Source: a virus (Duplodnaviria > Heunggongvirae > Uroviricota > Caudoviricetes > Herelleviridae). Taken from it: a stretch of 64,000 nt of DNA. Below the pieces are notes generated by a model. That model saw only the letters and a program-made list of their open reading frames with translations. It made no database searches and was not told where the DNA came from. Location: the IMG/VR virus record IMGVR_UViG_2974580128_000001; one strand, given 5' to 3'. A program made the position numbers and the translations under genes. Positions 1,739-25,800 of this stretch are shown piece by piece (position 1 is the stretch's first letter; every line of letters starts with the position of its first letter).

Positions 1739-2347
1739 TTGAAGAAAACGACAATTGCAACATTAGGACTTTTAGGACTAGGACTATCATTAGGATTGGG
1801 AGCTAAAGCTCACGCAGACGAAATCCAAGAAAATGGACAAACTTACTGGCAAGTAGAATCCGGGGATACATTATCAACTATTGGTAATCGTTACGGAATT
1901 GATTTTAACTTAATTCACCAAGCAAACTCAGACAAAGTTTCAGATGCTAACTTGATTTATGTTGGGGACAAACTATTATTACCATTAAACGGTGAAGTTC
2001 AAGCTCCTGTAGCTCAACCAGTGCAAGAAGCACCAGTTGTAGAACAAGCGCCTGTAGTAGAAGAAACACCTGTAGTTGAACAGGCACCAGTTGTTCAAGA
2101 ACCAGTAGAACAAGCTCCTGCCGTTACATCTAACTCAGCAAAAGAATGGATTGCACAAAAAGAATCTAGCGGTTCTTACTCAGCAACTAACGGACGTTAC
2201 ATTGGACGTTACCAATTAGATGCTTCATACTTAAACGGTGACTACTCACCAGAAAACCAAGAACGTGTAGCAGATGCTTATGTTGCAGGACGTTATGGTT
2301 CATGGGAAAATGCACAAGCTTTCTGGTTAGCTAACGGTTGGTACTAA
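1739..2347 (+). CDS. Secreted LysM protein with Apf/spr0096-like lysozyme-fold C-terminal domain
   Basis: Signal peptide ending AHA; LysM (VESGDTLSTI...ANLIYVGDKL); PVVEQA linker; C-terminus IAQKESSGSY..GRYQL...WLANGWY; RBS AAAGGAGA, TTG start. Confidence 0.9.
   Translation: MKKTTIATLGLLGLGLSLGLGAKAHADEIQENGQTYWQVESGDTLSTIGNRYGIDFNLIHQANSDKVSDANLIYVGDKLLLPLNGEVQAPVAQPVQEAPVVEQAPVVEETPVVEQAPVVQEPVEQAPAVTSNSAKEWIAQKESSGSYSATNGRYIGRYQLDASYLNGDYSPENQERVADAYVAGRYGSWENAQAFWLANGWY
2003..2119 (+). repeat. Degenerate ~18-bp coding tandem repeat (PVVEQA/PVVEET linker)
   Basis: CCAGTTGTAGAACAAGCG, CCTGTAGTAGAAGAAACA, CCTGTAGTTGAACAGGCA, etc. Confidence 0.85.
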
Positions 2348-2368
2348 AATAATAAATACTAACAGATT

Positions 2369-2402
2369 AAAAAAAGACTCTCTTTTTAGGGGGTCTTTTT
2401 CT
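2369..2402 (+). terminator. Intrinsic terminator
   Basis: AAAAAGACTCT...GGGGGTCTTTTT hairpin with T-run. Confidence 0.75.
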
Positions 2403-2404
2403 TA

Positions 2405-2414
2405 TGCTATATTA
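2405..2414 (+). promoter_or_regulatory. Putative late promoter TGCTATATTA (lysin 2)
   Basis: Recurrent decamer right after the terminator. Confidence 0.7.
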
Positions 2415-2450
2415 TAACTGTAACTTAAAAACAAACAGGAAGTGATAGCT

Positions 2451-3395
2451 ATGAGTAACATTAACATGGAAACCGCAATTGCGAACATGTACGCTCTAAA
2501 AGCACGAGGTATTACTTACTCAATGAACTACTCCCGAACAGGTGCAGATGGCACAGGGGATTGCTCTGGTACTGTCTATGATTCTTTACGTAAGGCAGGG
2601 GCTAGTGATGCAGGTTGGGTACTTAACACAGATAGTATGCACAGTTGGCTAGAAAAAAATGGTTTTAAACTGATTGCACAAAATAAGGAATGGTCAGCTA
2701 AACGTGGAGACGTTGTTATCTTTGGTAAAAAAGGTGCAAGTGGTGGTTCCGCAGGTCACGTGGTTATCTTCATTAGTAGTACACAGATTATTCACTGTAC
2801 ATGGAAATCAGCAACGGCTAACGGTGTTTACGTAGATAACGAAGCAACTACTTGTCCATATAGCATGGGTTGGTATGTGTATCGTTTAAACGGTGGAAGC
2901 ACTCCTCCAAAACCAAACACTAAGAAAGTAAAAGTACTTAAACACGCTACCAACTGGTCTCCATCAAGTAAAGGTGCAAAAATGGCAAGTTTTGTCAAAG
3001 GCGGTACATTTGAAGTTAAACAACAACGACCAATTTCTTATTCTTACTCTAATCAAGAATACTTGATTGTAAATAAAGGAACAGTACTTGGATGGGTTCT
3101 TTCCCAAGACATTGAAGGTGGATATGGTTCAGATAGAGTTGGGGGAAGCAAACCTAAACTACCTGCCGGATTTACGAAGGAAGAAGCTACGTTTATTAAT
3201 GGTAATGCTCCTATTACTACTCGTAAGAATAAACCAAGCTTATCTTCTCAAACAGCTACACCATTGTATCCGGGACAATCTGTAAGATACCTTGGTTGGA
3301 AATCTGCTGAGGGATACATCTGGATTTATGCAACAGATGGACGTTACATCCCTGTACGACCTGTAGGTAAGGAAGCATGGGGTACATTTAAGTAA
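2451..3395 (+). CDS. plyV12: PlyV12-like endolysin (Amidase_5/NlpC-P60-type catalytic domain plus SH3-type binding domains), 314 aa
   Basis: MSNINMETAIANMYALKARG..DCSG..GHV; ends EAWGTFK; length and sequence match PlyV12 as recalled; ATG 2451 preferred over GTG 2442 from RBS spacing. Confidence 0.9.
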   Translation: MSNINMETAIANMYALKARGITYSMNYSRTGADGTGDCSGTVYDSLRKAGASDAGWVLNTDSMHSWLEKNGFKLIAQNKEWSAKRGDVVIFGKKGASGGSAGHVVIFISSTQIIHCTWKSATANGVYVDNEATTCPYSMGWYVYRLNGGSTPPKPNTKKVKVLKHATNWSPSSKGAKMASFVKGGTFEVKQQRPISYSYSNQEYLIVNKGTVLGWVLSQDIEGGYGSDRVGGSKPKLPAGFTKEEATFINGNAPITTRKNKPSLSSQTATPLYPGQSVRYLGWKSAEGYIWIYATDGRYIPVRPVGKEAWGTFK

Positions 3396-6463: not shown

Positions 6464-7473
6464 TGTCTAAAACAATTAATGACATTATCGAAGATTTCGA
6501 TTCAAAAGTGAATGTACAGGAAGTATCTAAATCTATTGAAGATGAAAATGTAGAGCCTGTACAGGAAGAACAAATTGAAACACCAGAAGCTGTTGAAGAA
6601 GGTGTAGAAAATGACAAGCCGGAAGAACAGCCTGTTGAAGCTGAGGAAGTTAAAGAGGATGTTGAACCAGAATCCGAACCTACTGAATCAGATGAAAAAC
6701 CAGAAACAGAATCCGAAGTCGCAGAAGAAGCTACTGAACCAGAAGTGGAAAAAGTAGAAAAATCTGATAAAGAATCCGATAAAGAAGATGAGGAAAAAAA
6801 ATCTTCTGATGACGAGGACGACAAAGCGGATAAAAAGGATAAGAAAGATAAAAAAGCTGACAAAGAAGATAAAGATGAAAAAGATGAAGACAAAGAAGAT
6901 GTTAAAAAATCTGATGAGTCCGAAGACGTAGAAAACGTTGAAAAATCTGTTATTTCTTCCCAAGATATTGTCGGTGGATTCGAAGCTGTATTCAAAAATA
7001 TGGCAAACCTTTTTGAAACTCAAAAATCTTTAACTGATACTATTACAGAATTAAAATCTGAAATCGTAAGCTTACGTGAAGCTCACACACAAGCTATCAC
7101 AATGAATACAGAAGATGTTAACAAATCTATTCTTGTAGATAAAGTTGATGGAGTATCAGTAGAAGGTAAAGCAGTAGGATTTGTTTCTAAATCTGTAGAT
7201 GTAGAAGCAGATGTGACTTCTGAACAAGAAGATGTTGTTGAAGTAGTAGTAGAAGGTGCCGAACAAGAAGAAGCTCCGGCTAAATCTGATGAAGAACAAT
7301 TGTTTGACAGTGTTCGTGGAATCCGTGATGACTTAATGAGCACGTATACTCGTGTTGCAAGTAACGGACAAGCCCCTCGTGGTGAGTTAGAAGAAATTCG
7401 TCAATTATGGGGACGTATTAAATCCCAAGACGAACTAGCTCGTGCACAAGCATTCATTGATAAATACAAATAA
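6463..7473 (+). CDS. Highly acidic putative scaffolding protein
   Basis: E/D/K-rich low complexity; between protease and capsid; many xxKS sites; TAGTG stop-start overlap. Confidence 0.75.
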   Translation: MSKTINDIIEDFDSKVNVQEVSKSIEDENVEPVQEEQIETPEAVEEGVENDKPEEQPVEAEEVKEDVEPESEPTESDEKPETESEVAEEATEPEVEKVEKSDKESDKEDEEKKSSDDEDDKADKKDKKDKKADKEDKDEKDEDKEDVKKSDESEDVENVEKSVISSQDIVGGFEAVFKNMANLFETQKSLTDTITELKSEIVSLREAHTQAITMNTEDVNKSILVDKVDGVSVEGKAVGFVSKSVDVEADVTSEQEDVVEVVVEGAEQEEAPAKSDEEQLFDSVRGIRDDLMSTYTRVASNGQAPRGELEEIRQLWGRIKSQDELARAQAFIDKYK

Positions 7474-7506
7474 ATTTACTAAAAGGTAAATTTTTTTAAG
7501 GTGTAC

Positions 7507-7516
7507 TGCTATATTA
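7507..7516 (+). promoter_or_regulatory. Putative late promoter TGCTATATTA (capsid)
   Basis: Recurrent decamer. Confidence 0.75.
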
Positions 7517-7532
7517 TAGTCAGAACCAATGA

Positions 7533-7576
7533 GAGACCTGACATTTCCCCCCTGAACCTCCACAGGGTCAGGTCTC
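7533..7576 (+). promoter_or_regulatory. Structured 5' leader of the capsid mRNA
   Basis: GAGACCTGAC (7533-42) pairs with GTCAGGTCTC (7567-76); inner CCCTG/CAGGG. Confidence 0.65.
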
Positions 7577-7616
7577 ATCTTTGAGAGGAATAAAAATGAA
7601 AGGTGATTTATATATA

Positions 7617-9017
7617 ATGCCAGAAGACAAAAAACAAGAAGCTAAATTAAATCCCGTTCAGGAACAAGTAATCAAAGGATTTACAACTGGTTATGGTATT
7701 ACTCCTGACACGCAAACTGATGCGGCGGCTTTAAGACGAGAATTTCTAGATGACCAAATTACTATGCTTACATGGGCAGAAGGAGATTTGTCATTCTATC
7801 GTGACATCACAAAACGCCCTGCTACATCTACAGTAGCTAAATATGACGTATACCTAGCACACGGTAAAGTAGGACATACACGTTTCGTTCGTGAAATCGG
7901 TGTAGCTCCAATTTCTGACCCAAGCTTACGTCAAAAAACTGTTAACATGAAATACGTTTCTGATACTAAGAACATGAGTATCGCAACTGGTTTAGTTAAC
8001 AACATCGAAGACCCAATGCAAATCTTAACAGACGATGCTATCTCTGTTGTTGCTAAAACAATCGAATGGGCTTCTTTCTACGGAGATGCTGACTTATCTG
8101 AAAACCCAGAACGTGACTCCGGTCTAGAATTTGACGGTTTAGTTAAATTAATTGACAAACATAACGTTATTGATGCTAAAGGTGAAAGCTTAACAGAAGC
8201 ATTACTTAACCAAGCTTCCGTATTAATCGGTAAAGGTTATGGTACTCCAACTGATGCTTACATGCCAATCGGTGTACAAGCTGACTTCGTGAACCAACAA
8301 CTTGACAAACAAGTTCAAGTTATCCGTGACAACGGTCAAAATGTAACAATGGGATTCAACGTTCAAGGGTTCAACTCTGCACGTGGTTTCATTAAATTAC
8401 ATGGTTCAACAGTAATGGAATTAGAACAAATCTTGGATGAATACCAAATGGTTAGTCCTAATGCTCCACAAAAAGCTACTGTTCAAGCAACTGTAGAAAC
8501 TGACAAGAAAGGTACATTCCGTCCAGAAGACATTGCTACTCCTGCTGAGTACAAAGTAGTTGTAGTATCTGACGATGCAGAATCTGCTCCATCTGACGTG
8601 GCTACTGCTACAATTGCTAACGCTACTGACGGTGTTAAATTAGCAATCACTATCAACAGCATGTATCAAGCTCGTCCTCAATACGTAGCTATCTACCGTA
8701 AAGGACATCAAACAGGATTGTTCTACCAAATCGCACGTGTACCTGCAAGTAAAGCAGAAAACAACGTAATCACTTTCTACGATTTGAACCAACAAATCCC
8801 TGAAACTGCTGACGTATTCGTAGGTGAATTGACTCCATCTGTAGTTCACTTGTTCGAATTACTACCAATGATGCGTTTACCATTAGCTCAAATGAACGCT
8901 TCTGTAACATTCGCAGTTCTATGGTATGGTGCTTTAGCTCTTCGTGCACCTAAGAAATGGGCACGAATCAAGAACGTTAAATACATTCCATCTGGAAACG
9001 TAATTAACGAACGCTAA
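7617..9017 (+). CDS. Major capsid protein precursor
   Basis: K|GFTTGYGITPDTQTDAAALRREFLDDQIT ... LWYGALALRAPKKW typical of Twort/A511/phiEF24C capsids; start 7617 (SD AAAGGTGA) or in-frame 7596. Confidence 0.96.
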   Translation: MPEDKKQEAKLNPVQEQVIKGFTTGYGITPDTQTDAAALRREFLDDQITMLTWAEGDLSFYRDITKRPATSTVAKYDVYLAHGKVGHTRFVREIGVAPISDPSLRQKTVNMKYVSDTKNMSIATGLVNNIEDPMQILTDDAISVVAKTIEWASFYGDADLSENPERDSGLEFDGLVKLIDKHNVIDAKGESLTEALLNQASVLIGKGYGTPTDAYMPIGVQADFVNQQLDKQVQVIRDNGQNVTMGFNVQGFNSARGFIKLHGSTVMELEQILDEYQMVSPNAPQKATVQATVETDKKGTFRPEDIATPAEYKVVVVSDDAESAPSDVATATIANATDGVKLAITINSMYQARPQYVAIYRKGHQTGLFYQIARVPASKAENNVITFYDLNQQIPETADVFVGELTPSVVHLFELLPMMRLPLAQMNASVTFAVLWYGALALRAPKKWARIKNVKYIPSGNVINER

Positions 9018-10287: not shown

Positions 10288-11160
10288 ATGGCTAATGAAC
10301 CAACACGTTTCAGCAGTTCAGGTTCTACAGGTAACCCTAAGCAATACATGAATGTAAGTAGACTAGAGTTTGAAACAAAAGGTATGGATACCTTTGTAAT
10401 GAACCGTGGTATAAACATTCTGTGGGAACGAGCTTGGCTTTGTACATGCCGAAATCCGATGACTCTTGCTCCTGACTCTAATTGCCCTATTTGTAGGGGT
10501 AGAGGTATTGCATATCAACCTGCTGTTAAGGATATAATGATTATCCAAAGTCAAGAAAAAGGTGTATCAAATCAAGATTTAGGGTTGTTCGATTCTGGTA
10601 CAGCTATTGGTACAACTCCAATTGACTCTAAAATTACTTTCCGAGACAGAATTACTGTCCCAGATGTGGAAATATACCAAAGTTTCATTTTTAATGTAAA
10701 TAGTCGTAGATTAGAGACAGGTATGTTTTTAAGCTATGATGTTAAACGGTTAGAGGATGTGTATGGTGACAAAGGGCAAGTCCTTGTGGAGGGTAAAGAC
10801 TTTACGATGGACTATAGCACGAATACTTTTTATCCTAAACAACATTTGTTAAACACGAACATCTCTATCAACATGGCAGTAACATTACGTTATCTGGTTA
10901 TTGATTTACTCAAAGAAAGTCGTTACCAGTACACGAAATTTGGTGTAAAAGAACCGCTGTTTGAGAACCTTCCTAGAAAGCTCCTATTGAAGCGTGAGGA
11001 CATCTTTGTTGATAGTGAGCCTTTTGTATTAGAAGTAGATACGAAGTCTCGTCTAGAGGCACTAGAGAAGGAAAAAGAAGTAACAGAATCTAAGATGGTC
11101 GACCCTAAACGTACAGGTTCAAGTGCGGGAGGATTCTTTGGAGGTAAACTAAATGGCTAA
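10288..11160 (+). CDS. Virion neck protein
   Basis: CTCRNP..CPICRGRG cysteine motif; synteny. Confidence 0.75.
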   Translation: MANEPTRFSSSGSTGNPKQYMNVSRLEFETKGMDTFVMNRGINILWERAWLCTCRNPMTLAPDSNCPICRGRGIAYQPAVKDIMIIQSQEKGVSNQDLGLFDSGTAIGTTPIDSKITFRDRITVPDVEIYQSFIFNVNSRRLETGMFLSYDVKRLEDVYGDKGQVLVEGKDFTMDYSTNTFYPKQHLLNTNISINMAVTLRYLVIDLLKESRYQYTKFGVKEPLFENLPRKLLLKREDIFVDSEPFVLEVDTKSRLEALEKEKEVTESKMVDPKRTGSSAGGFFGGKLNG

Positions 11161-11776
11161 GAAAGGACAACGACCTGCACTGTTCACCAGTCCTAAAGAA
11201 ATGTTAGGTAATCTGACACGAGCAATGGTAGATGAGATTCTATCTGATGCACAAGACCAAGCATTACGTGCAGGTGCTGATGTCCAAAGAATGCCTAATT
11301 ATTTACAGGTAACAGAATCAAGAATGGCTAAGAGCGGTGTAATTGATTTAAAACCGTTCTTCGCTCGTTCTAGTAAGAAGAAGTATAATAAAAAAGGTGA
11401 ATGGTACTTATATATTCCTATTCAAATTAAGACAAGAAAGATGTCTAGAAGATTGTATGACGATTTAAGGTCTTTTCCTACAAATGGTCGTCCTGTAACA
11501 GTTAAGATGGACTATCTTTATGATAGAAGAAAACAAAGTCCCGCTGTACAAAGTATCAACTATAGCCCTAAGTCCAAAAATGTTACAATTATACCAAGAG
11601 AGTGGGGAGAAGGTACACGGAATACATATGTGACATTCCGTACAGTAAATGCCAATTCTCCGGCTAACAGTTGGATAATCAACCGTAGTAAAGTGAACTC
11701 GGACGATATGAGTAAAACAATGTTAGCTAATATCGACAGGTTAATGAAGTGGAAATTGAAGAATTTAGGAGGGTAA
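11153..11776 (+). CDS. Conserved basic structural-module protein
   Basis: TYVTFRTVNANSPANSWI motif; overlaps neighbours. Confidence 0.75.
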   Translation: MAKKGQRPALFTSPKEMLGNLTRAMVDEILSDAQDQALRAGADVQRMPNYLQVTESRMAKSGVIDLKPFFARSSKKKYNKKGEWYLYIPIQIKTRKMSRRLYDDLRSFPTNGRPVTVKMDYLYDRRKQSPAVQSINYSPKSKNVTIIPREWGEGTRNTYVTFRTVNANSPANSWIINRSKVNSDDMSKTMLANIDRLMKWKLKNLGG

Positions 11777-11779
11777 AAG

Positions 11780-12625
11780 ATGATACCAAGTTTAGACACT
11801 TACTTGTATAAAGAATTTGAAGAAAGACTGAGAATTATCTTAGAAGAGTGCTATATTATAGACGAAGCTTTGAAGGAGATAGATTCCCAAGCTTTAGAGA
11901 CATTTAAAAATACTTATTGTTCAATTGACGGTAAGGCTCCAAAGAAAGAAATCGAAATGTCGTATTCTTTCCCACAGGAGAAGCAGAACTTTAATGCTCG
12001 TTATGTGATTACACTAGGTGGGAGTGATGAGGAGAATAAGTCAATGGGTGGTGTACAGGGAGGCTATACTTACCGAGAAGGTGATATAGTTAATGAAGCT
12101 GTTCAACTTGTCCGTAATGGAAAAGATTTAATTATGAACACAACAAAGCCTGTAGCTGATTTTTTGAATAGCCCAGATATTAGTTTTTCAGAAAGCGACC
12201 ATTTCAGAATCGAAAACAACAAGCCTGTATTTGATTATTCCGGTAATGAACACTTAGAAGGTAAATCTTTTAATATTGTTTATACTGTGAAAGAGTCTGA
12301 TGAGGATGTAGCAGGTGTTTACAAAGGGTACCAATCCTCCGATACCGTAAACATTGTCGGAATTAGTACAAATATGGACACTGCCCGCTGTCTAGATGCT
12401 ATCGCAAGATTAATTCTTATTACGATGCGTGACAGCTTAGATGAGAAAACAGGATACATGCTACAGACGTTACACTTTGGAGACATGCAACCTGTAATTG
12501 AATCAGGTGAGACAGTAGTATTTGGTAGACCTTGTACAATCGGGTATAAAGTAACTAATTCTATTAGTTTTGACTTAAACCGACAAATACGAGAAATTAT
12601 TACCAAAAGGAGGATGAAAGCCTAA
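11780..12625 (+). CDS. Putative tail completion/terminator protein
   Basis: MIPSLDTYLY start typical of this syntenic family. Confidence 0.7.
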   Translation: MIPSLDTYLYKEFEERLRIILEECYIIDEALKEIDSQALETFKNTYCSIDGKAPKKEIEMSYSFPQEKQNFNARYVITLGGSDEENKSMGGVQGGYTYREGDIVNEAVQLVRNGKDLIMNTTKPVADFLNSPDISFSESDHFRIENNKPVFDYSGNEHLEGKSFNIVYTVKESDEDVAGVYKGYQSSDTVNIVGISTNMDTARCLDAIARLILITMRDSLDEKTGYMLQTLHFGDMQPVIESGETVVFGRPCTIGYKVTNSISFDLNRQIREIITKRRMKA

Positions 12626-12867: not shown

Positions 12868-14577
12868 ATGGCTGTAGAACAATTCCCAAGAAAAAAAGTG
12901 TCCCGTCCACATACTGAAATTACTGTAGATACTTCTGGTATCGGTGGTGCATCTAACAGTTCTGAAAAAACATTAATGTTAGTAGGTTCTGCTAAAGGTG
13001 GTAAACCAAATACAGTTTATCGTTTCCGTAACTACCAACAAGCTAAAGCTACATTACGTAGTGGTGAACTATTGGATGCTATTGAATTAGCATGGAACGC
13101 TTCTGATGTGAACACTGCATCCGCAGGTGACATTTTAGCATTGCGTGTAGAAAATGCTACTAACGCAACAATCAAAAAAGGTGGTTTAACCATCGCATCT
13201 ACTATTTATGGTTTAGATGCAAACGAAATGCAAGTTGCTTTGGAAGACAATAGTTTAACAAATACTAAACGTCTGACAATTGCATTTGCAAAAGACGGAT
13301 ACAACAAAGTATTCGATAACTTAGGTAAAATCTTCTCTATCAAGTATAAAGGAGAACAAGCACAAGCTTCCTTCACTATTACAGAAGATAGCATTACTAA
13401 GAAGGCAAATAAACTTATTCTAAGTGCAGGTGCTGAGGTTGAAGACCAAACTCCTGTAATGGAGTATAGCTTAGGACAAGGTGTTTACTCTGATACAAAC
13501 GTATTAGTAAGTGCAATCAACAGTTTACCTGACTGGGAAGCTAAACTATTCCCTATCGGAGACAAAAACGTCCCTACTGAAACATTTGATAAAGTAGAAA
13601 AAGCTGATGTTAAAACAGGTGAGAAATATGTTGAAGCTCTAGGCGGAGACATTGCTAAACAATTGGAATATAACGACTACGTAACAGTAGAAATTGACCG
13701 TGCAACTCCAATTCAAGACTTTGCATTAACTAACCTTTCTGGTGGTACAGATGGAACAATCCCAGAATCTTGGGCTGACAAATTCCCTCTATTAGCTAAT
13801 GAAGGTGGTTACTACTTAGTACCATTGACAGACAAACAAGCTGTTCATTCAGAAGCTTTAGCATTTGTTAAAGACCGTACAGACAATGGAGACCCTATGC
13901 GTATCGTTGTTGGTGGTGGAACGAATGAAACAGTTGAAGAAAGTATCGCACGTGCTACAAACTTACGTGACCCACGAGCTTCTGTAGTAGGATTCTCTGG
14001 TACTCGTAAGATGGATGATGGACGTTTGCTTAAATTACCGGGCTACATGATGGCTTCACAAATTGCAGGTATTGCAAGTGGGCTTGAAATCGGTGAAGCA
14101 ATTACGTTCAAACACTTCAACGTAACAACTGTAGACCGTATCTACGAAAGTGGTCAATTAGACATGCTTAACGACAGTGGTGTTATCGCTGTTGAGTATG
14201 TACGTAACCGTACCTTAACTGCATTCCGTATCGTGCAAGACGTTACAACTTACAACGATAAAACAGACCCAGTTAAGAACGAAATGTCTGTAGGTGAAGC
14301 AAACGACTTCTTAGTATCCGAATTGAAGATTGAATTAGATAACAACTTCATTGGAACTAAAGTTGTAGATACAAGCGCAAGCTTGATTAAAAACTTCATC
14401 CAATCATTCCTAGATAAGAAAAAACGTGCTCGTGAAATCCAAGATTACACACCAGAAGAAGTACAAGTTGTTCTTGAAGGGGATGTAGCATCTATCAGCA
14501 TGACTGTAATGCCAATCCGTAGCTTGAACAAGATTACTGTACAACTAGTGTACAAACAACAAATCTTGACAGCATAA
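12868..14577 (+). CDS. Tail sheath protein
   Basis: MAVEQFPRKKVSRPHTEI, GSAKGGKPNTVY, LNKITVQLVY. Confidence 0.95.
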   Translation: MAVEQFPRKKVSRPHTEITVDTSGIGGASNSSEKTLMLVGSAKGGKPNTVYRFRNYQQAKATLRSGELLDAIELAWNASDVNTASAGDILALRVENATNATIKKGGLTIASTIYGLDANEMQVALEDNSLTNTKRLTIAFAKDGYNKVFDNLGKIFSIKYKGEQAQASFTITEDSITKKANKLILSAGAEVEDQTPVMEYSLGQGVYSDTNVLVSAINSLPDWEAKLFPIGDKNVPTETFDKVEKADVKTGEKYVEALGGDIAKQLEYNDYVTVEIDRATPIQDFALTNLSGGTDGTIPESWADKFPLLANEGGYYLVPLTDKQAVHSEALAFVKDRTDNGDPMRIVVGGGTNETVEESIARATNLRDPRASVVGFSGTRKMDDGRLLKLPGYMMASQIAGIASGLEIGEAITFKHFNVTTVDRIYESGQLDMLNDSGVIAVEYVRNRTLTAFRIVQDVTTYNDKTDPVKNEMSVGEANDFLVSELKIELDNNFIGTKVVDTSASLIKNFIQSFLDKKKRAREIQDYTPEEVQVVLEGDVASISMTVMPIRSLNKITVQLVYKQQILTA

Positions 14578-14642: not shown

Positions 14643-15065
14643 ATGGCTAGCGTTGGAAATCAAACAGTCCACACAGGTAACACAGTTTACTTGATGATTG
14701 GTAACAAAATTATCGGACGTGCACAATCTGCATCTGGTGAACGTCAATATGGTACACAAGGTGTATACGAAATTGGTAGTATCATGCCACAAGAACACGT
14801 ATACTTGAAATATGAAGGTACAATCAACCTTGAACGTATGCGTATGAAGAAAGAAGACTTAGCAAGCTTAGGTATTACTGCTCTAGGTGAAGATATTCTT
14901 CAACGTGACATTATCGACATCGTAATGATGGATAACTTGACTAAAGAAATCGTTGTTGCTTACCGTGGATGCTCTGCTGTATCTTACAGTGAATCATTCA
15001 CAGCTAACGAAATCACTAGTGAGTCCACTCAGTTCACGTACCTAACATCAGCTAAAGTTAAGTAA
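14643..15065 (+). CDS. Tail tube protein
   Basis: MASVGNQTVHTGNTVYLMI..GVYEIGSIMPQEHV; follows the sheath. Confidence 0.93.
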   Translation: MASVGNQTVHTGNTVYLMIGNKIIGRAQSASGERQYGTQGVYEIGSIMPQEHVYLKYEGTINLERMRMKKEDLASLGITALGEDILQRDIIDIVMMDNLTKEIVVAYRGCSAVSYSESFTANEITSESTQFTYLTSAKVK

Positions 15066-15072
15066 GTAGTGT

Positions 15073-15106
15073 AAAATAGACCCTAAAAAATGGGGTCTAT
15101 TTTTTT
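15073..15106 (+). terminator. Intrinsic terminator after the tail tube gene
   Basis: AAAATAGACCC...GGGTCTATTTTTTT. Confidence 0.9.
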
Positions 15107-15116
15107 AGTTTTGGTA

Positions 15117-15145
15117 TTGACAAATTATACATGTATCTATATAAT
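15117..15145 (+). promoter_or_regulatory. Consensus sigma-A promoter TTGACA-N17-TATAAT
   Basis: TTGACA 15117-22, TATAAT 15140-45. Confidence 0.9.
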
Positions 15146-15151
15146 AGGTAT

Positions 15152-15237
15152 TGTAGTTGGTATACATTTTCGAACTTAATCTTTCTTATCTTTATCTTAC
15201 ACATGACCTAGCAGGAGTGCTAGGTCTATTTTTTTTT
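15152..15237 (+). ncRNA. Candidate ~85-nt small RNA
   Basis: Perfect promoter, no RBS or ORF, CU-rich body, terminator GACCTAGCA-GGAG-TGCTAGGTC-TA-T9 (15205-15237). Confidence 0.55.
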
Positions 15238-15263
15238 GCTCTCATAGAGGCAACTAACTAGTG

Positions 15264-15292
15264 TGCTATAATAAGTATAGAATGCTATATTA
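15264..15292 (+). promoter_or_regulatory. Tandem promoters TGCTATAATA and TGCTATATTA (chaperone operon)
   Basis: Motifs at 15264-73 and 15283-92. Confidence 0.65.
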
Positions 15293-15321
15293 ACTTATGA
15301 AAGACATAGGAGGAATAAGTA

Positions 15322-15795
15322 ATGACTGAAAAAGAAAACAAGGTTGATTTCCCTCAGCTTAACATGACTCGTGAACAGCTTATCGAAAAGATTAACCGTG
15401 GGGAAAATCTAACAGACGAAGAAATTAATTTGTTAAAATATCATAATGCAGAAGCAGAGCATAAAGAACTTAACCGAATTATTCCGGGAGTTAACAATGT
15501 ATTCTCAAAACATTATGATTTAAAAGAGTTTGGTATGGAATTTGATATTAAAATTAAAGCACCAAACGTGGTACAACAAGGTAAAATTCAAGCAATGCGT
15601 GAGGCTTACTTAGAAGGTATGGGTATGGCAGTAAGTAACTTTATTTTCCAATGCTACCATACACTAGCTACTATCCGTGTTTGTGGTGTAGAAGTACCTA
15701 AAGAGCTAGAAAAAGATGAAGACATCTATAACATCTACGTCTTAAACATTATCGGGAAGGATTTTGCGGAGTGGTTAAACTCCTTTCGCTACTAA
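15322..15795 (+). CDS. Tail assembly chaperone (G-like)
   Basis: Between tube and tape measure; ends WLNSFRY; RBS AGGAGGA. Confidence 0.85.
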   Translation: MTEKENKVDFPQLNMTREQLIEKINRGENLTDEEINLLKYHNAEAEHKELNRIIPGVNNVFSKHYDLKEFGMEFDIKIKAPNVVQQGKIQAMREAYLEGMGMAVSNFIFQCYHTLATIRVCGVEVPKELEKDEDIYNIYVLNIIGKDFAEWLNSFRY

Positions 15796-16444
15796 TCTCG
15801 AAAGTTTAGGGGGTATAAAAACCCTCGTCAGAAATACATATAGCCGAAACATGTGGGCTATTATGAAAAAATTTAATGTATTACCTAGTGACCCTGCATG
15901 GCAAAATCTAACTCATGAGCAAGTAGAATGGATTTTGTATAACATGGAAAGAGATGTTGAAGAAGAACAACGCAGAGCTAAAGGTCTTGCTCTTGAAGGT
16001 GAATACGAAGACTTGGATGCTTCTTGGTATGATGTACCTCATGAAGAGTTTAACCCTGTACGTGAAGGTCATGATGAAGCTGAGATTGCTCGTAAGCTTA
16101 ATGAAATCACTACAGAAGAGGACATGGCTAAACTTAAAGCTCGTTGGGAAGCTAGTCAGGAAGTCGATGCAATCCGTGCCGAAGGTGGTACAACGATTGA
16201 GGAAGACACAATCAATGAACTTATTGCTAACAATGTACAGAAAGCTATTGAAGAAGCTAAACGTATTGAGAAACATGGTGGTAATAAGTGGGGAGACAAA
16301 ACCCCGATTGAATTAGAGGAGGAGCGTAAGAATCTAGAATTTAAATCTCAGCTTAAGCAAGATGATATTCAAGATGCAATTGCTCTGTTCAATGGAGAAA
16401 AAGATATTGAACCAACATCAGTAGACGATGATTTTGTAATATAG
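15779..16444 (+). CDS. Tail assembly chaperone extension (T-like), probably reached by +1 frameshift
   Basis: +1 frame open from 15779 (after TAA 15776) through LGGIKTLVRNTYSRNMWAIMKKF; no RBS before ATG 15851. Confidence 0.75.
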   Translation, partial: TPFATNLESLGGIKTLVRNTYSRNMWAIMKKFNVLPSDPAWQNLTHEQVEWILYNMERDVEEEQRRAKGLALEGEYEDLDASWYDVPHEEFNPVREGHDEAEIARKLNEITTEEDMAKLKARWEASQEVDAIRAEGGTTIEEDTINELIANNVQKAIEEAKRIEKHGGNKWGDKTPIELEEERKNLEFKSQLKQDDIQDAIALFNGEKDIEPTSVDDDFVI

Positions 16445-22741: not shown

Positions 22742-22766
22742 TTGTAAAAAACAAAACTAGTATGTG

Positions 22767-22776
22767 TGCTATAATA
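22767..22776 (+). promoter_or_regulatory. Putative promoter TGCTATAATA
   Basis: Extended -10 after the terminator. Confidence 0.65.
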
Positions 22777-22815
22777 TTAAGTAGAGACACATACAAGAGA
22801 AAGGATGGTATCAAC

Positions 22816-25800
22816 TTGGCAGGAGGACGTAGATTTCAGGCAGGGTTAGGTTCCGAACATAAAAGATTATACAAAGAAGGACAACAAATTAATACTTTGT
22901 TACTAGCCCAAGTTATCCAAGTTAATTATAAATACAATACAGTTGATTTACTAGCATTACAGCATAAAGAAGTTTTCCAAAACTCCTATGCCAATGAAGG
23001 TAGATTTTCTGCTCGTTTACCAATGGAATTTGGTGGACGAAACCTTGCAGGACAACCATATGGTCAAGTAAACCCTATTGCCGTTGGTACTGTTGTCCTA
23101 GTAGGTTTTATTAACTCTGATAAAGACATGCCGATTGTTATTAGTGTATACAATAACAACGATGTAAATAAACAATTATCCCGTACACGTTTTGCTAATG
23201 CAGACCCTACAGATATGGCTTTAGCGGGACAAATGTATCAAAAATTTAGTTTGTACCCATCTTTAACTTACGATAGTATTGATGGGGATGGTAACCGAGT
23301 AGTTACATTCTCTGGTAAATCATTTATTGCATTCGATACAAAAGACATGCAAAACTCTCCAATGACAGATGCTAGTTACGGTTCTCGTTATGAAGACTTA
23401 GGAACATCTTACTATAACGATGGAGAACTAATTGAACCGATGAAAGGTCGAGCACCTAATGTGTTGTTCAAGCACCAAGGTATTCTTGACGATGATAATA
23501 AACCCGATACACATAATTTCATGATTCACATTAACCCAGATGGAACATACCGTACATCTATGATGGATACGGAACAAGACTGGCGGACAATGTTTGAGAT
23601 GACACCGGAGGGTAAAATCCGTTTACGTAGACAAGGGGATACTGTACGTCTAAACGATGGTTTTGAAATTGGTGAACTAGGTATTAATGAAGAAGGTATC
23701 GTTTACTTACGTAATGGGGACATGGACTTAGAAGTTCGTGAAGATGGTATCTACTCCCAAGGTAAACTAATCACAGAAAATATCAATCTTGATGATATTT
23801 ATGAAAAATTAGCTAATGTTACTTTTGAAATTAATAAGACAAATGAGTCCTTACAAATTTTAACTGAGAAATCAGAACTACAAGATGGTAAGATTGTAAA
23901 TCTAGAAACAGAGATTACAATTGTAGCCGGAAAAGTAGAATCTAAAGTAAGTGCAACAGAAGTACAAGACATGATTGATAGCTCTATTGTAGACATGACG
24001 GATGCTATTAAAAAAGCCCAAGAAGATGCAGATAGAGCAAATCAAGTTATTTCTGATATGGCTAGTGATAATCGCTTGGCTCCTAGTGAGAAGCTAGACT
24101 TACTAAAAGAGTGGGACATCATCAAGAATGAGTATCCAACTTATTTAGCACAAGCTGAACTATACGAAGTAGATAGTACAACTTATACTGCTAAGTATAA
24201 AGCTTTAGAAACATTTGTTACTCCTTTATTGGAAGACATGGAAGCTACTAGTGTAGTAGATGGTTCTATTATGCGTAAAACATTTAGTGCATATTACACA
24301 GAACGAATCAATTTACTAAATGCAATCACTAAAGGGTTAAAAGATGGTTTAGAAGAGGCAATGAAGAAAGCTTCTCAGGCTTCTGTAGATGCTACACAAG
24401 CTTTAGCTGATTCTGCACAGGCACAAATTGATGCAAACAATGCAAAACAATTGATTGCAGATATTGCTAGTGACGGTAAGCTGACTGCTTCTGAAAAGTA
24501 CCAATTGAAAAAAGAATGGGATGTTATTGTTAAGGAGTATCCTACAACAATTGCCCAAGCAACAAAGTACAAAGTAAATACAGATAACTATACTGCTAAG
24601 TATAAAGCTTTAGAAACATTTGTCACTCCTTTGTTTGCGAATATGGATGAAACAAGCGTAGTTAACGGGGAACAACTACGTGCAGTATTTTCTGATTACT
24701 ATGCTGTAAAGATTACTTTATTAAAAGAAATCACAGATATTGCTCGTGATGAATTGACTGATTATGGTAACCGTATTACTGTAGCAGAAACAAAAATCAC
24801 ACAAACATCCGAAGCTATTACGTTAATGGCTTCCCGAGTGGAAACTGTTGAAAATAATGTTAAAACAAACACAGCTCAATTGAAAGTACAAGCAGACCTA
24901 ATTAGTCAGAAAGTAACTGCTAGTGAAGTAAAAGATGCTATTGATAATGCAATTGATAACATGTCTATTGGTGGTTCTAACTTATTTGTAATCAAAACGC
25001 AAACAGCAGGACTATTGAATGAAAATAATGGTACTGTAGGAACAGCCGTAGATAAATCTGTAGTATCTAACTATATCAAGGTAACAGCTAAAATGCCTTA
25101 TGTAGCTTCTTTATATGGAAACACAGGGACAAACAGTATTATCATTGCATGGTATGACACAAGCAAAACGTTTATCTCTGGTCAAGCTGTAGCTGATTCT
25201 GGTGATTTCCATAAAACTTATGTTGCACCAGAAAACGCAGTATATGCTCGTTTAAGCTATAAAAAAGCTGATACTGTTAAAATGAAATTTGAAGTAGGTA
25301 CGAAGCCAACTGATTACAGCCCGTCATGGGATGATATTAAAGGTGACCAGACTGCTTTAGAGGAATACATTAAACAGGTAGAGGAACAAGCTAAACAAGC
25401 ACAACAAGAAGCAGAAAACGCCAAGAATGAAGCAGAAAATGCAAATAGTGCTATTGCTGATATGTCTAATGACAATATGTTAACAGCAAATGAGAAACAA
25501 CAAATTTTACTACAATGGGAAGAAATTAAAACGGAATATCCAATTAATTTAGACCAAGCAACTAAATTTGGTGTTTCTGCTACGCAGTATACAACAGCGT
25601 ACAATGCGCTAAAAACATATTTAGACCCATTATTAGCAGATATGACAACAACTTCTGTAATTGTTGGTTCTACTATGCGCAGTACATTTAATACGTACTA
25701 CGACCGTAGAACAACATTGCTTAATCGTGTAGCTGAACTAGCTAAACAAGTAGCTGACCAAGCTAAGGATACAGCAGACAAAGTAGACGATGACTTAAAC

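Follow-up and report, generated by a model that had tools for sequence, protein, structure and literature searches.

An ORF-less promoter-terminator unit in the tail module of Enterococcus Schiekvirus phages is antisense to their common early leader and may encode an anti-leader RNA

Why should a perfect host-type promoter and an intrinsic terminator enclose a body of just 52 nucleotides (nt), without any credible open reading frame (ORF), in the midst of the tail genes of a large lytic phage? This question is raised by a short element, here called the unit (positions 15117-15237), in a stretch of 64,000 nt from the IMG/VR virus record IMGVR_UViG_2974580128_000001, and this whole stretch is referred to as the window in the following. 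The window belongs to an Enterococcus phage of the genus Schiekvirus (Herelleviridae, Brockvirinae), which is obligately lytic, and the unit sits in the 256-nt gap that extends from the tail tube gene to the first tail assembly chaperone gene. What is new here is that the body of the unit is, as judged from a comparison of sequences, antisense to the common early leader of the phage. Our preferred, if tentative, reading is that the unit may specify a trans-acting anti-leader RNA that would turn down the early messenger RNAs (mRNAs) of the phage.

The unit and its antisense match to the early leader

Along the + strand of the window, the unit is composed of the following features:

15117-15145, + strand: perfect sigma-A type promoter (-35 at 15117-15122, 17-nt spacer, -10 at 15140-15145)
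15153-15204, + strand: ORF-less transcribed body of 52 nt, predicted to be mostly unpaired (predicted start at 15151-15153)
15175-15200, + strand: CU-rich 26-mer inside the body
15180-15201, + strand: antisense seed of 22 nt with an 11-mer core at 15191-15201, reverse complement of the 5' end of the early leader
15205-15237, + strand: intrinsic terminator of the unit with a 9-bp stem, a 4-nt loop and TA + T9 (hairpin at 15205-15226)

The promoter (TTGACA-N17-TATAAT) agrees with the consensus at 12 of 12 positions, represents the sole zero-mismatch site in the 64-kb window and begins 14 nt 3' of the tail-tube terminator. The CU-rich 26-mer is unique in the window, even if up to three mismatches are allowed. 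Five of the nine pairs of the terminator hairpin are G-C, and the TA and nine T residues following it end at position 15237. In the predicted fold of the RNA, the hairpin alone is stable (-17.3 kcal/mol, z -2.2) and the body stays open, and the predicted transcript would have a length of about 83-85 nt. A preliminary description of the locus had listed a consensus promoter just after the tail-tube terminator, some 55 nt lacking a ribosome-binding site (RBS) or ORF, a CU-rich stretch and a 9-bp stem with T9, and all of these were found in place. Its proposal of a discrete ORF-less unit to be used by the host RNA polymerase fits this anatomy as well as the conservation in relatives.

No protein-coding ORF with a start codon and an RBS, as would mark an accessory gene (moron), extends between promoter and terminator. 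On the + strand, the unit contains just ATG ACC TAG, in addition to short ORFs that start inside the promoter or cross the terminator, and an ORF of 35 amino acids (aa) on the minus strand overlaps the variable promoter. Because the T-run consists of T7, T8 or T9 among relatives, which shifts the frame, ORFs across the terminator are not credible; small ORFs on both strands were discarded for this polymorphism, for the lack of an RBS and for their overlap with the variable promoter. An Rfam search of the unit, with E-values up to 10 and with the gathering thresholds, gave no match, the best sub-threshold candidate showing an E-value >1 on the wrong strand. ARAGORN identified neither a transfer RNA nor a transfer-messenger RNA, and Tandem Repeats Finder detected no tandem repeats in 14900-15500. 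The repeats of about 34-36 nt expected for a ToxI-like RNA of a type III toxin-antitoxin system are absent, and the neighbours of the unit are tail tube and chaperone genes.

When the genome of phage EFDG1 was searched with the unit, antisense matches were obtained, the best of which (20/22 at 1775-1796) is located directly 3' of a perfect early promoter. Once all sigma-A-like promoters of EFDG1 were listed, early genes near the genome ends were seen to possess near-identical promoter-leader cassettes, which drive small genes in or near the terminal repeat. These cassettes consist of an extended -35, a 17-nt spacer, the -10, another 5-6 nt and a leader starting with the 11-mer TGTAAGATAAA, followed by a purine-rich Shine-Dalgarno (SD) sequence and the ATG. 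Sense copies of the 11-mer occur 5-6 nt past the -10 of near-consensus promoters and 22-35 nt ahead of ORFs of 50-253 aa. With early mRNA start sites deduced from these promoters, positions 15180-15201 correspond to the reverse complement of the first 22 nt of this common immediate-early leader, and the seed matches two early leaders of phage Porthos at 21 of 22 positions. The reverse complement of the 11-mer is located at 15191-15201, and this single minus-strand match is its sole occurrence in the window. Exact copies of the 11-mer were counted by strand in eleven complete Schiekvirus genomes, with the following result:

EFDG1: early-gene strand 5, opposite strand 1
EFGrNG: early-gene strand 5, opposite strand 1
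EFGrKN: early-gene strand 7, opposite strand 1
Bill: early-gene strand 9, opposite strand 1
TJE2: early-gene strand 10, opposite strand 1
PEf771: early-gene strand 10, opposite strand 1
SHEF13: early-gene strand 12, opposite strand 1
Porthos: early-gene strand 12, opposite strand 1
EFP01: early-gene strand 12, opposite strand 1
21C1: early-gene strand 12, opposite strand 1
iF6: early-gene strand 14, opposite strand 1

The single copy on the opposite strand is that of the unit in 11 of 11 genomes, a control in which the 11-mer was read backwards gave 0 in all of them, and unit and leader family co-occur in every one of the eleven.

The strength and specificity of this complementarity were evaluated with duplex tests in which promoter-leader sets were compared with random genomic and dinucleotide-shuffled controls. 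The body forms predicted duplexes of -23.2 to -32.4 kcal/mol (mean -26.4) with five early leaders of EFDG1, whereas 400 dinucleotide shuffles of the body gave -15.1 +/- 2.0 kcal/mol with the same leaders and not a single one of the 400 reached the observed mean. For 3000 random genomic 50-mers, -11.1 +/- 3.5 kcal/mol were obtained, the lowest value being -27.9 and the 1% point -21.2; of 77 promoter-proximal leaders, six lie beyond this 1% point, compared with 0.8 expected. All 13 promoter-associated leader copies of iF6 (11 distinct cassettes, two of them repeated in the terminal repeat) and all 11 copies of Porthos (10 distinct cassettes) range from -21.5 to -29.9 kcal/mol. The mean unpaired probability of the seed in the free RNA is 0.83. 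On cofolding with the leaders, the terminator hairpin is retained, 17-26 kcal/mol are gained and the predicted pairing starts at nucleotide 1 of the mRNA and spans the SD sequence, reaching the AUG in several cases. As is typical for antisense small RNAs (sRNAs), an accessible segment is complementary to leaders beyond what composition accounts for, and the predicted targets are leaders of early genes, in which the pairing would cover the RBS. The idea, put forward in the preliminary description, that the pyrimidine tract might seed on purine-rich leaders was specifically right in view of the 20-21/22 match and the duplex energies, and what had been left unspecified there, the identity of the leaders, can now be narrowed down to the immediate-early leaders of the phage itself.

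The best non-self duplex within the window (-29 kcal/mol) involves 6865-6915, a purine-rich, low-complexity stretch coding for Lys, Asp and Glu in a 336-aa ORF after the prohead protease, and was judged to be a composition artefact. A further conserved copy of the 11-mer (EFDG1 10389-10399, iF6 5358, Porthos 6217) lacks an upstream -35, and a hairpin and a T-run come after it. This copy directly precedes the RBS of a minus-strand gene, and the 5' untranslated region of the minus-strand mRNA would therefore also carry the antisense 11-mer.

Conservation, genomic setting and origin

Between 14600 and 15900, the window shows 99.5-99.8% identity to phages EFGrNG, vB_OCPT_Bop, PEF1 and EFDG1. Conservation of the promoter-terminator interval in relatives, proposed in the preliminary description as a check on the unit, holds for 21 of the 21 Schiekvirus records that match this stretch, and the unit was found in none outside the genus. 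Among 16 aligned relatives, the body is 52 nt long in each case and shows two singleton substitutions, at 15160 and 15172, both of which lie outside the seed; the seed itself (15180-15201) is invariant. Only one change affects the terminator in the 16 genomes, namely that of an A-U to a G-U pair in PEf771. Both promoter hexamers are intact in 14 of the 16 relatives, in the context of three spacer haplotypes, and TJE2 and EFGrKN possess a non-homologous replacement promoter of the same type, positioned one base nearer to the body. Variation ends no more than one or two bases from the predicted start site. In a five-genome alignment, the tube terminator and the promoter are hypervariable, with 56-59% variable columns (59% for 15066-15116), and the block 15153-15402 is at the 5.6th percentile among the 250-nt windows of the 24 kb aligned. 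Searches for more divergent homologues (blastn 'distant' and two IMG/VR scans) returned just near-identical Schiekvirus copies; the remaining IMG/VR 16-mer matches are in contigs without the unit, several of them being sense-strand copies of the early leader and the rest chance-like.

The features surrounding the unit, placed by means of ORF calls and the annotation of relatives, are the following:

12868-14577: tail sheath gene
14643-15065, + strand: tail tube gene (140 aa), left neighbour, annotated as tail tube in iF6, EFP01 and PEf771
15073-15110, + strand: tail-tube intrinsic terminator with a 13-pair stem (15073-15103) and a T-run, a variable region and insertion hot spot
15262-15272, + strand: extended -10-like element TGTG-C-TATAAT without a -35, a possible sigma-A restart promoter
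15283-15292, + strand: phage late-promoter 10-mer ahead of the chaperone operon
15322-15795, + strand: tail assembly chaperone gene 1 (157 aa), right neighbour, so annotated in phage 113, iF6, Porthos and PEf771
15851-16444: second tail assembly chaperone gene
from 16486: tape measure gene

The 10-mer TGCTATATTA at 15283-15292 occurs nine times in the window, always on the + strand (257, 1678, 2405, 3431, 5629, 7507, 11849, 15283 and 39307), as compared with 0.26 copies expected. The copies are nearly all intergenic and are found nearly always ahead of structural or lysis genes. As the 10-mer fits the experimentally mapped late -10 box of Staphylococcus Kayvirus, being identical to its pL67 variant (PMC7698491), the chaperone operon seems to have a late promoter of its own, and a late sigma specificity appears to be common to Herelleviridae genera. 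The extended -10-like element at 15262-15272 is kept in 16 relatives and also in phiEF24C. These two elements would correspond to the separate promoters for restarting the chaperone operon that the preliminary description had mentioned, and the unit upstream of them would form an early-type unit of its own within a late module. Among five Schiekvirus genomes, the longest runs without any variation correspond to window positions 7462-7987, 11759-11910, 15244-15383 and 22743-22901; each of the first three includes a late promoter together with the 5' end of the following gene, suggesting either strong constraint or recurrent gene conversion at such late-promoter/leader blocks.

In relatives, the gap between tube and chaperone genes serves as a slot for varying cargo. 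In phiEF24C, a member of the sister genus Kochikohdavirus, it contains a sigma-A-type promoter, ORF025 (278 aa), ORF026 (48 aa), a homologous terminator and the same late-promoter block ahead of the chaperone gene, and the terminator closing ORF025-ORF026 has its 3' arm and T-run in common with that of the unit. In iF6, Bill and phage 113, a gene for a homing endonuclease of 370 aa (iF6 stretch 1916-3028; Bill stretch 1353-2465; phage 113 stretch 1-337) is placed between the tube gene and the unit, and in the iF6-type insert the last ~30 nt of the tube gene and its terminator are duplicated downstream of the insert. EFP01 harbours a different endonuclease gene (445 aa; EFP01 stretch 1152-2489) with its own promoter, the insertion of which removes the left arm of the upstream terminator. 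According to PHROGs, both large inserts encode free-standing homing endonucleases (PHROG 559; intron-encoded nuclease families), and a Pfam search of the slot cargo proteins gave no matches. TJE2 has an ORF of 86 aa that belongs to no known family and possesses its own promoter and no terminator (TJE2 stretch 2076-2336); it is followed by the replacement promoter for the unit. In EFGrKN (stretch 850-905), the TJE2-type replacement promoter is kept, its -35 is damaged and the 86-aa ORF is absent, as if it had been lost by deletion. The slot is therefore encountered empty, with the 86-aa ORF, with the 370-aa or the 445-aa endonuclease gene or with two ORFs. Since the inserts of EFP01 and TJE2 are without an intact terminator and their transcripts would end at that of the unit, the terminator of the unit may be regarded as the standing right-hand boundary of the cargo slot. 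A stem-loop, 14 nt and an early promoter next to a slot whose content varies by relative are what is seen at the PeSL boundaries of other phages.

When the whole unit is reverse-complemented, it can be aligned with an early cassette all the way from the -35 region to the ATG and has a leader of equal length, for which reason the body is likely to stem from an inverted duplication of such a cassette. The alignment includes a 16/17 match of the terminator 3' arm and T-run to the cassette spacer, in a stretch that is A-rich, and its score is reached by 0 of 300 shuffles. In the inverted leader, 95-100% of the initial 22 nt have been kept and the remainder has diverged. The same -10, 5-nt gap and leader start are also encountered in several unrelated large IMG/VR phage contigs (20-217 kb). 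As the leader start is found in these contigs and in phiEF24C, and phiEF24C has no unit, the leader seems to be old and the antisense unit a Schiekvirus innovation. One IMG/VR contig contains the 11-mer as an inverted pair 57 nt apart (114670/114738), and the leader could there fold back on its own 5' end.

Proposed function and alternative explanations

What the sequences show is how the unit is built and conserved, that it alone has the antisense orientation, how strong and specific the complementarity is and how accessible the seed is; that the RNA is produced and pairs in the infected cell, and in which direction and when it acts, we infer from this. The anti-leader RNA would pair with early mRNAs from their 5' end to the SD site, which would block their translation and expose the duplex to double-strand-specific ribonucleases. 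In this manner, one RNA could turn down a whole early gene family (5-14 mRNAs). The seed would also be present on tube or endonuclease mRNAs extending into the body, which might act alike; such read-through mRNAs could provide it late in infection, which could solve the timing problem posed by an early-type promoter. A functional RNA is favoured by a promoter that is intact or replaced in 15 of 16 genomes, by the exact length of the body, by an inverted leader that has kept its initial 22 nt and diverged beyond them and by the classical sRNA geometry. More tentatively still, a strictly lytic Herelleviridae phage might encode a dedicated anti-leader RNA that silences its immediate-early, that is host-takeover, mRNAs by means of one 22-nt seed. 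With the same leader start in use in Kochikohdavirus, relatives that co-infect or superinfect the cell might likewise have their early genes suppressed by this RNA. Such an RNA would be a temporal switch and a weapon in inter-phage competition at the same time.

A number of observations speak against an anti-leader function. The sigma-A promoter of the unit would fire together with its proposed targets, so the logic of its timing is not obvious, and a neutral inverted fragment of a cassette would give the same geometry. The complement of the SD G-run is not retained in the body, where pairing has to proceed via mismatches and wobbles. The -35 of the replacement promoter in EFGrKN is weakened, and in phiEF24C the 12 leader copies within 95.5-104.5 kb all point the same way and an antisense counterpart is lacking. 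With 4% variable columns, the body does not stand out from the remaining intergenic DNA of the structural module (0-7%), and the island of low diversity continues past the late promoter to cover the initial 80 nt of the chaperone gene, where it takes in synonymous sites as well; conservation was accordingly given less weight as a sign of function. As both the unit and the leader family are invariant, there is no covariation of seed and leader to be read.

The main rival explanation, possible if doubtful, is that of an emptied accessory-gene (moron) slot, in which the body would be a neutral inverted fragment of an early promoter-leader cassette left behind after loss of the cargo. The RNA may still be made in that case, and selection would act on the terminator only, which keeps early or read-through transcription out of the late chaperone operon. 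The preliminary description had offered the remnant of a lost moron as its alternative; the slot of phiEF24C, in which a promoter, ORF025 and ORF026 precede a terminator with the same 3' arm and T-run, lends it real comparative support, and it stays the main rival. Endonuclease genes or the 86-aa ORF lying just upstream in relatives, with the inserts of EFP01 and TJE2 expected to end at the terminator of the unit, fit an emptied slot as well. So does the alignment of the whole reverse complement to the early cassette, whose 16/17 spacer match points to an origin by inverted duplication. An emptied slot would also account for a conservation that equals the local background, for the tolerance of a damaged -35 in EFGrKN, for the loss of the SD complement and for a sister genus that manages without the unit. 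In contrast, hexamers that are intact in 15 of 16 genomes, despite three spacer haplotypes and one complete promoter replacement, are difficult to reconcile with a scar, and the same holds for an inverted leader of which precisely the first 22 nt are preserved while the rest has diverged. The seed is presented in an accessible single strand beside the terminator hairpin, as is typical of sRNAs, and a neutral scar is not expected to hold a length of exactly 52 nt in every lineage.

An action directed at the host is improbable. The RNA would then seed on purine-rich host leaders or serve as a sponge or decoy for a host RNA-binding or defence protein, for which its long, accessible, pyrimidine-rich single strand would be suited, and phage K produces small non-coding RNAs with only predicted host targets (PMC9241854). 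However, the 18-nt core is absent, in both orientations, from all Enterococcus species-representative genomes, and the 23 matches outside these genomes are consistent with chance. Tandem repeats, a toxin partner and an Rfam family are lacking, and with them the basis for the decoy resembling a type III toxin-antitoxin system that the preliminary description had considered, there being no adjacent toxin ORF. Moreover, no host target is needed to explain the sequence, given its specific match to the leader family of the phage itself.

We consider it slightly less probable again that the unit acts in cis on the chaperone operon. Upon read-through of the terminator, the CU tract would pair with the chaperone RBS and silence it, so that only transcripts from the late promoter would be translated, or else the unit would be a platform for antitermination similar to lambda pR' or 6S. 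The order of promoter, leader, terminator and gene is indeed the classical layout of an attenuator, and in the fold of 15153-15345, both minimum-energy and centroid, positions 15174-15193 pair with the SD region of the chaperone gene. However, this fold is no better than that of shuffles (z -1.2), and no alternative antiterminator helix is evident. Trans pairing of the tract with the chaperone RBS was likewise dismissed as not special, since this RBS ranks only 6th among 40 (-14.2 to -14.7 kcal/mol). Read-through is not required, as an independent late promoter is present downstream of the terminator, and phiEF24C runs the same operon without such a leader.

That the 11-mer at +1 is a DNA operator for a phage or host regulator, and its inverted copy an extra binding site, roadblock or means of titration, is very improbable, because the similarity spans 22 nt and the whole leader length, which is beyond the size of an operator, the location of the copy, beside the terminator and ~40 nt past the start site of the unit, would be unusual for an operator, and a partner half-site is missing, even if all early cassettes have the 11-mer at a constant position behind their -10.

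Significance and relation to known systems

How large virulent phages of Gram-positive bacteria end the early host-takeover phase is poorly understood, and for the Herelleviridae only sigma-factor switching and candidate repressors are discussed in this respect (PMC7698491, PMC9241854). If the unit does encode an anti-leader RNA, a single small RNA fitting the common leader of all cloned early cassettes would constitute a simple post-transcriptional shutoff. It would also provide a rare concrete target set for an sRNA of a lytic phage, published catalogues of phage sRNAs being mostly without targets. Since Schiekviruses are studied as therapeutic phages against Enterococcus faecalis and E. faecium, the RNA would be a possible handle for engineering and a possible factor when the phages of a cocktail have the same leader. 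Should the unit be nothing but a scar, it still illustrates the remodelling of a single hot spot, within an otherwise conserved tail module, by early promoter cassettes, homing endonuclease genes and morons.

Transcriptome papers on Herelleviridae report small non-coding RNAs without convincing targets (PMC9241854, PMC12282133, PMC10383478), and by RNA-seq ORF-less transcripts, some of them from early sigma-70-type promoters, were detected in Staphylococcus Kayvirus phage K (PMC9241854) and in Listeria phage CKA15 (PMC12282133), in the latter as non-coding loci with high transcription. The unit shows no sequence similarity to the non-coding RNAs of phage K and CKA15, whose targets are weak predictions and none of which is reported to be antisense to a common early-leader family. 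In the literature, we found no paper on Schiekvirus transcription and no RNA data for any Schiekvirus.

With regard to mechanism, the closest known systems are the CI RNA of P4 and the C4 RNAs of P1 and P7, trans-acting antisense immunity RNAs of temperate phages or plasmid-like elements. Like the unit, they involve a small phage RNA with a single-stranded segment that pairs with repeated sites in the phage's own early leaders. In contrast to the unit, CI and C4 are processed from the transcript of the target operon, address one or two sites and act mainly by premature termination or by masking the RBS of a single operon. The unit belongs to a lytic phage, has its own promoter and terminator in the tail module and would address 5-14 dispersed predicted targets. 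In function, T4 RegB comes closest, an endoribonuclease which shuts off early mRNAs by cleavage in SD sequences. As proposed for the unit, early transcripts are inactivated collectively through a short common sequence of the RBS region. However, RegB is a protein nuclease recognising GGAG, whereas the unit would act through antisense pairing of its RNA with the 11-22 nt at the 5' end of the leader. The oop RNA of lambda and the sar RNA of P22 are cis-encoded antisense RNAs that are transcribed opposite a single target gene. They are, like the predicted RNA of the unit, short, terminator-ended phage RNAs from constitutive host-type promoters and regulate by pairing, as proposed for the unit, which differs from them by its multiple targets at a distance of 55-75 kb.

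The closest architecture is that of the PeSL cassettes of T4-type phages, reportedly described by Arbiol, Comeau and Krisch in 2010, in which a stem-loop and an early promoter flank shuffled small ORFs. Both arrangements have a terminator stem-loop that is directly followed by a consensus early promoter, and in both the ORF content of the slot varies among close relatives. PeSLs are, however, recombination and regulatory boundaries for which no RNA of their own has been proposed, whereas the unit possesses a conserved body, predicted to be transcribed, that is complementary to other transcripts.

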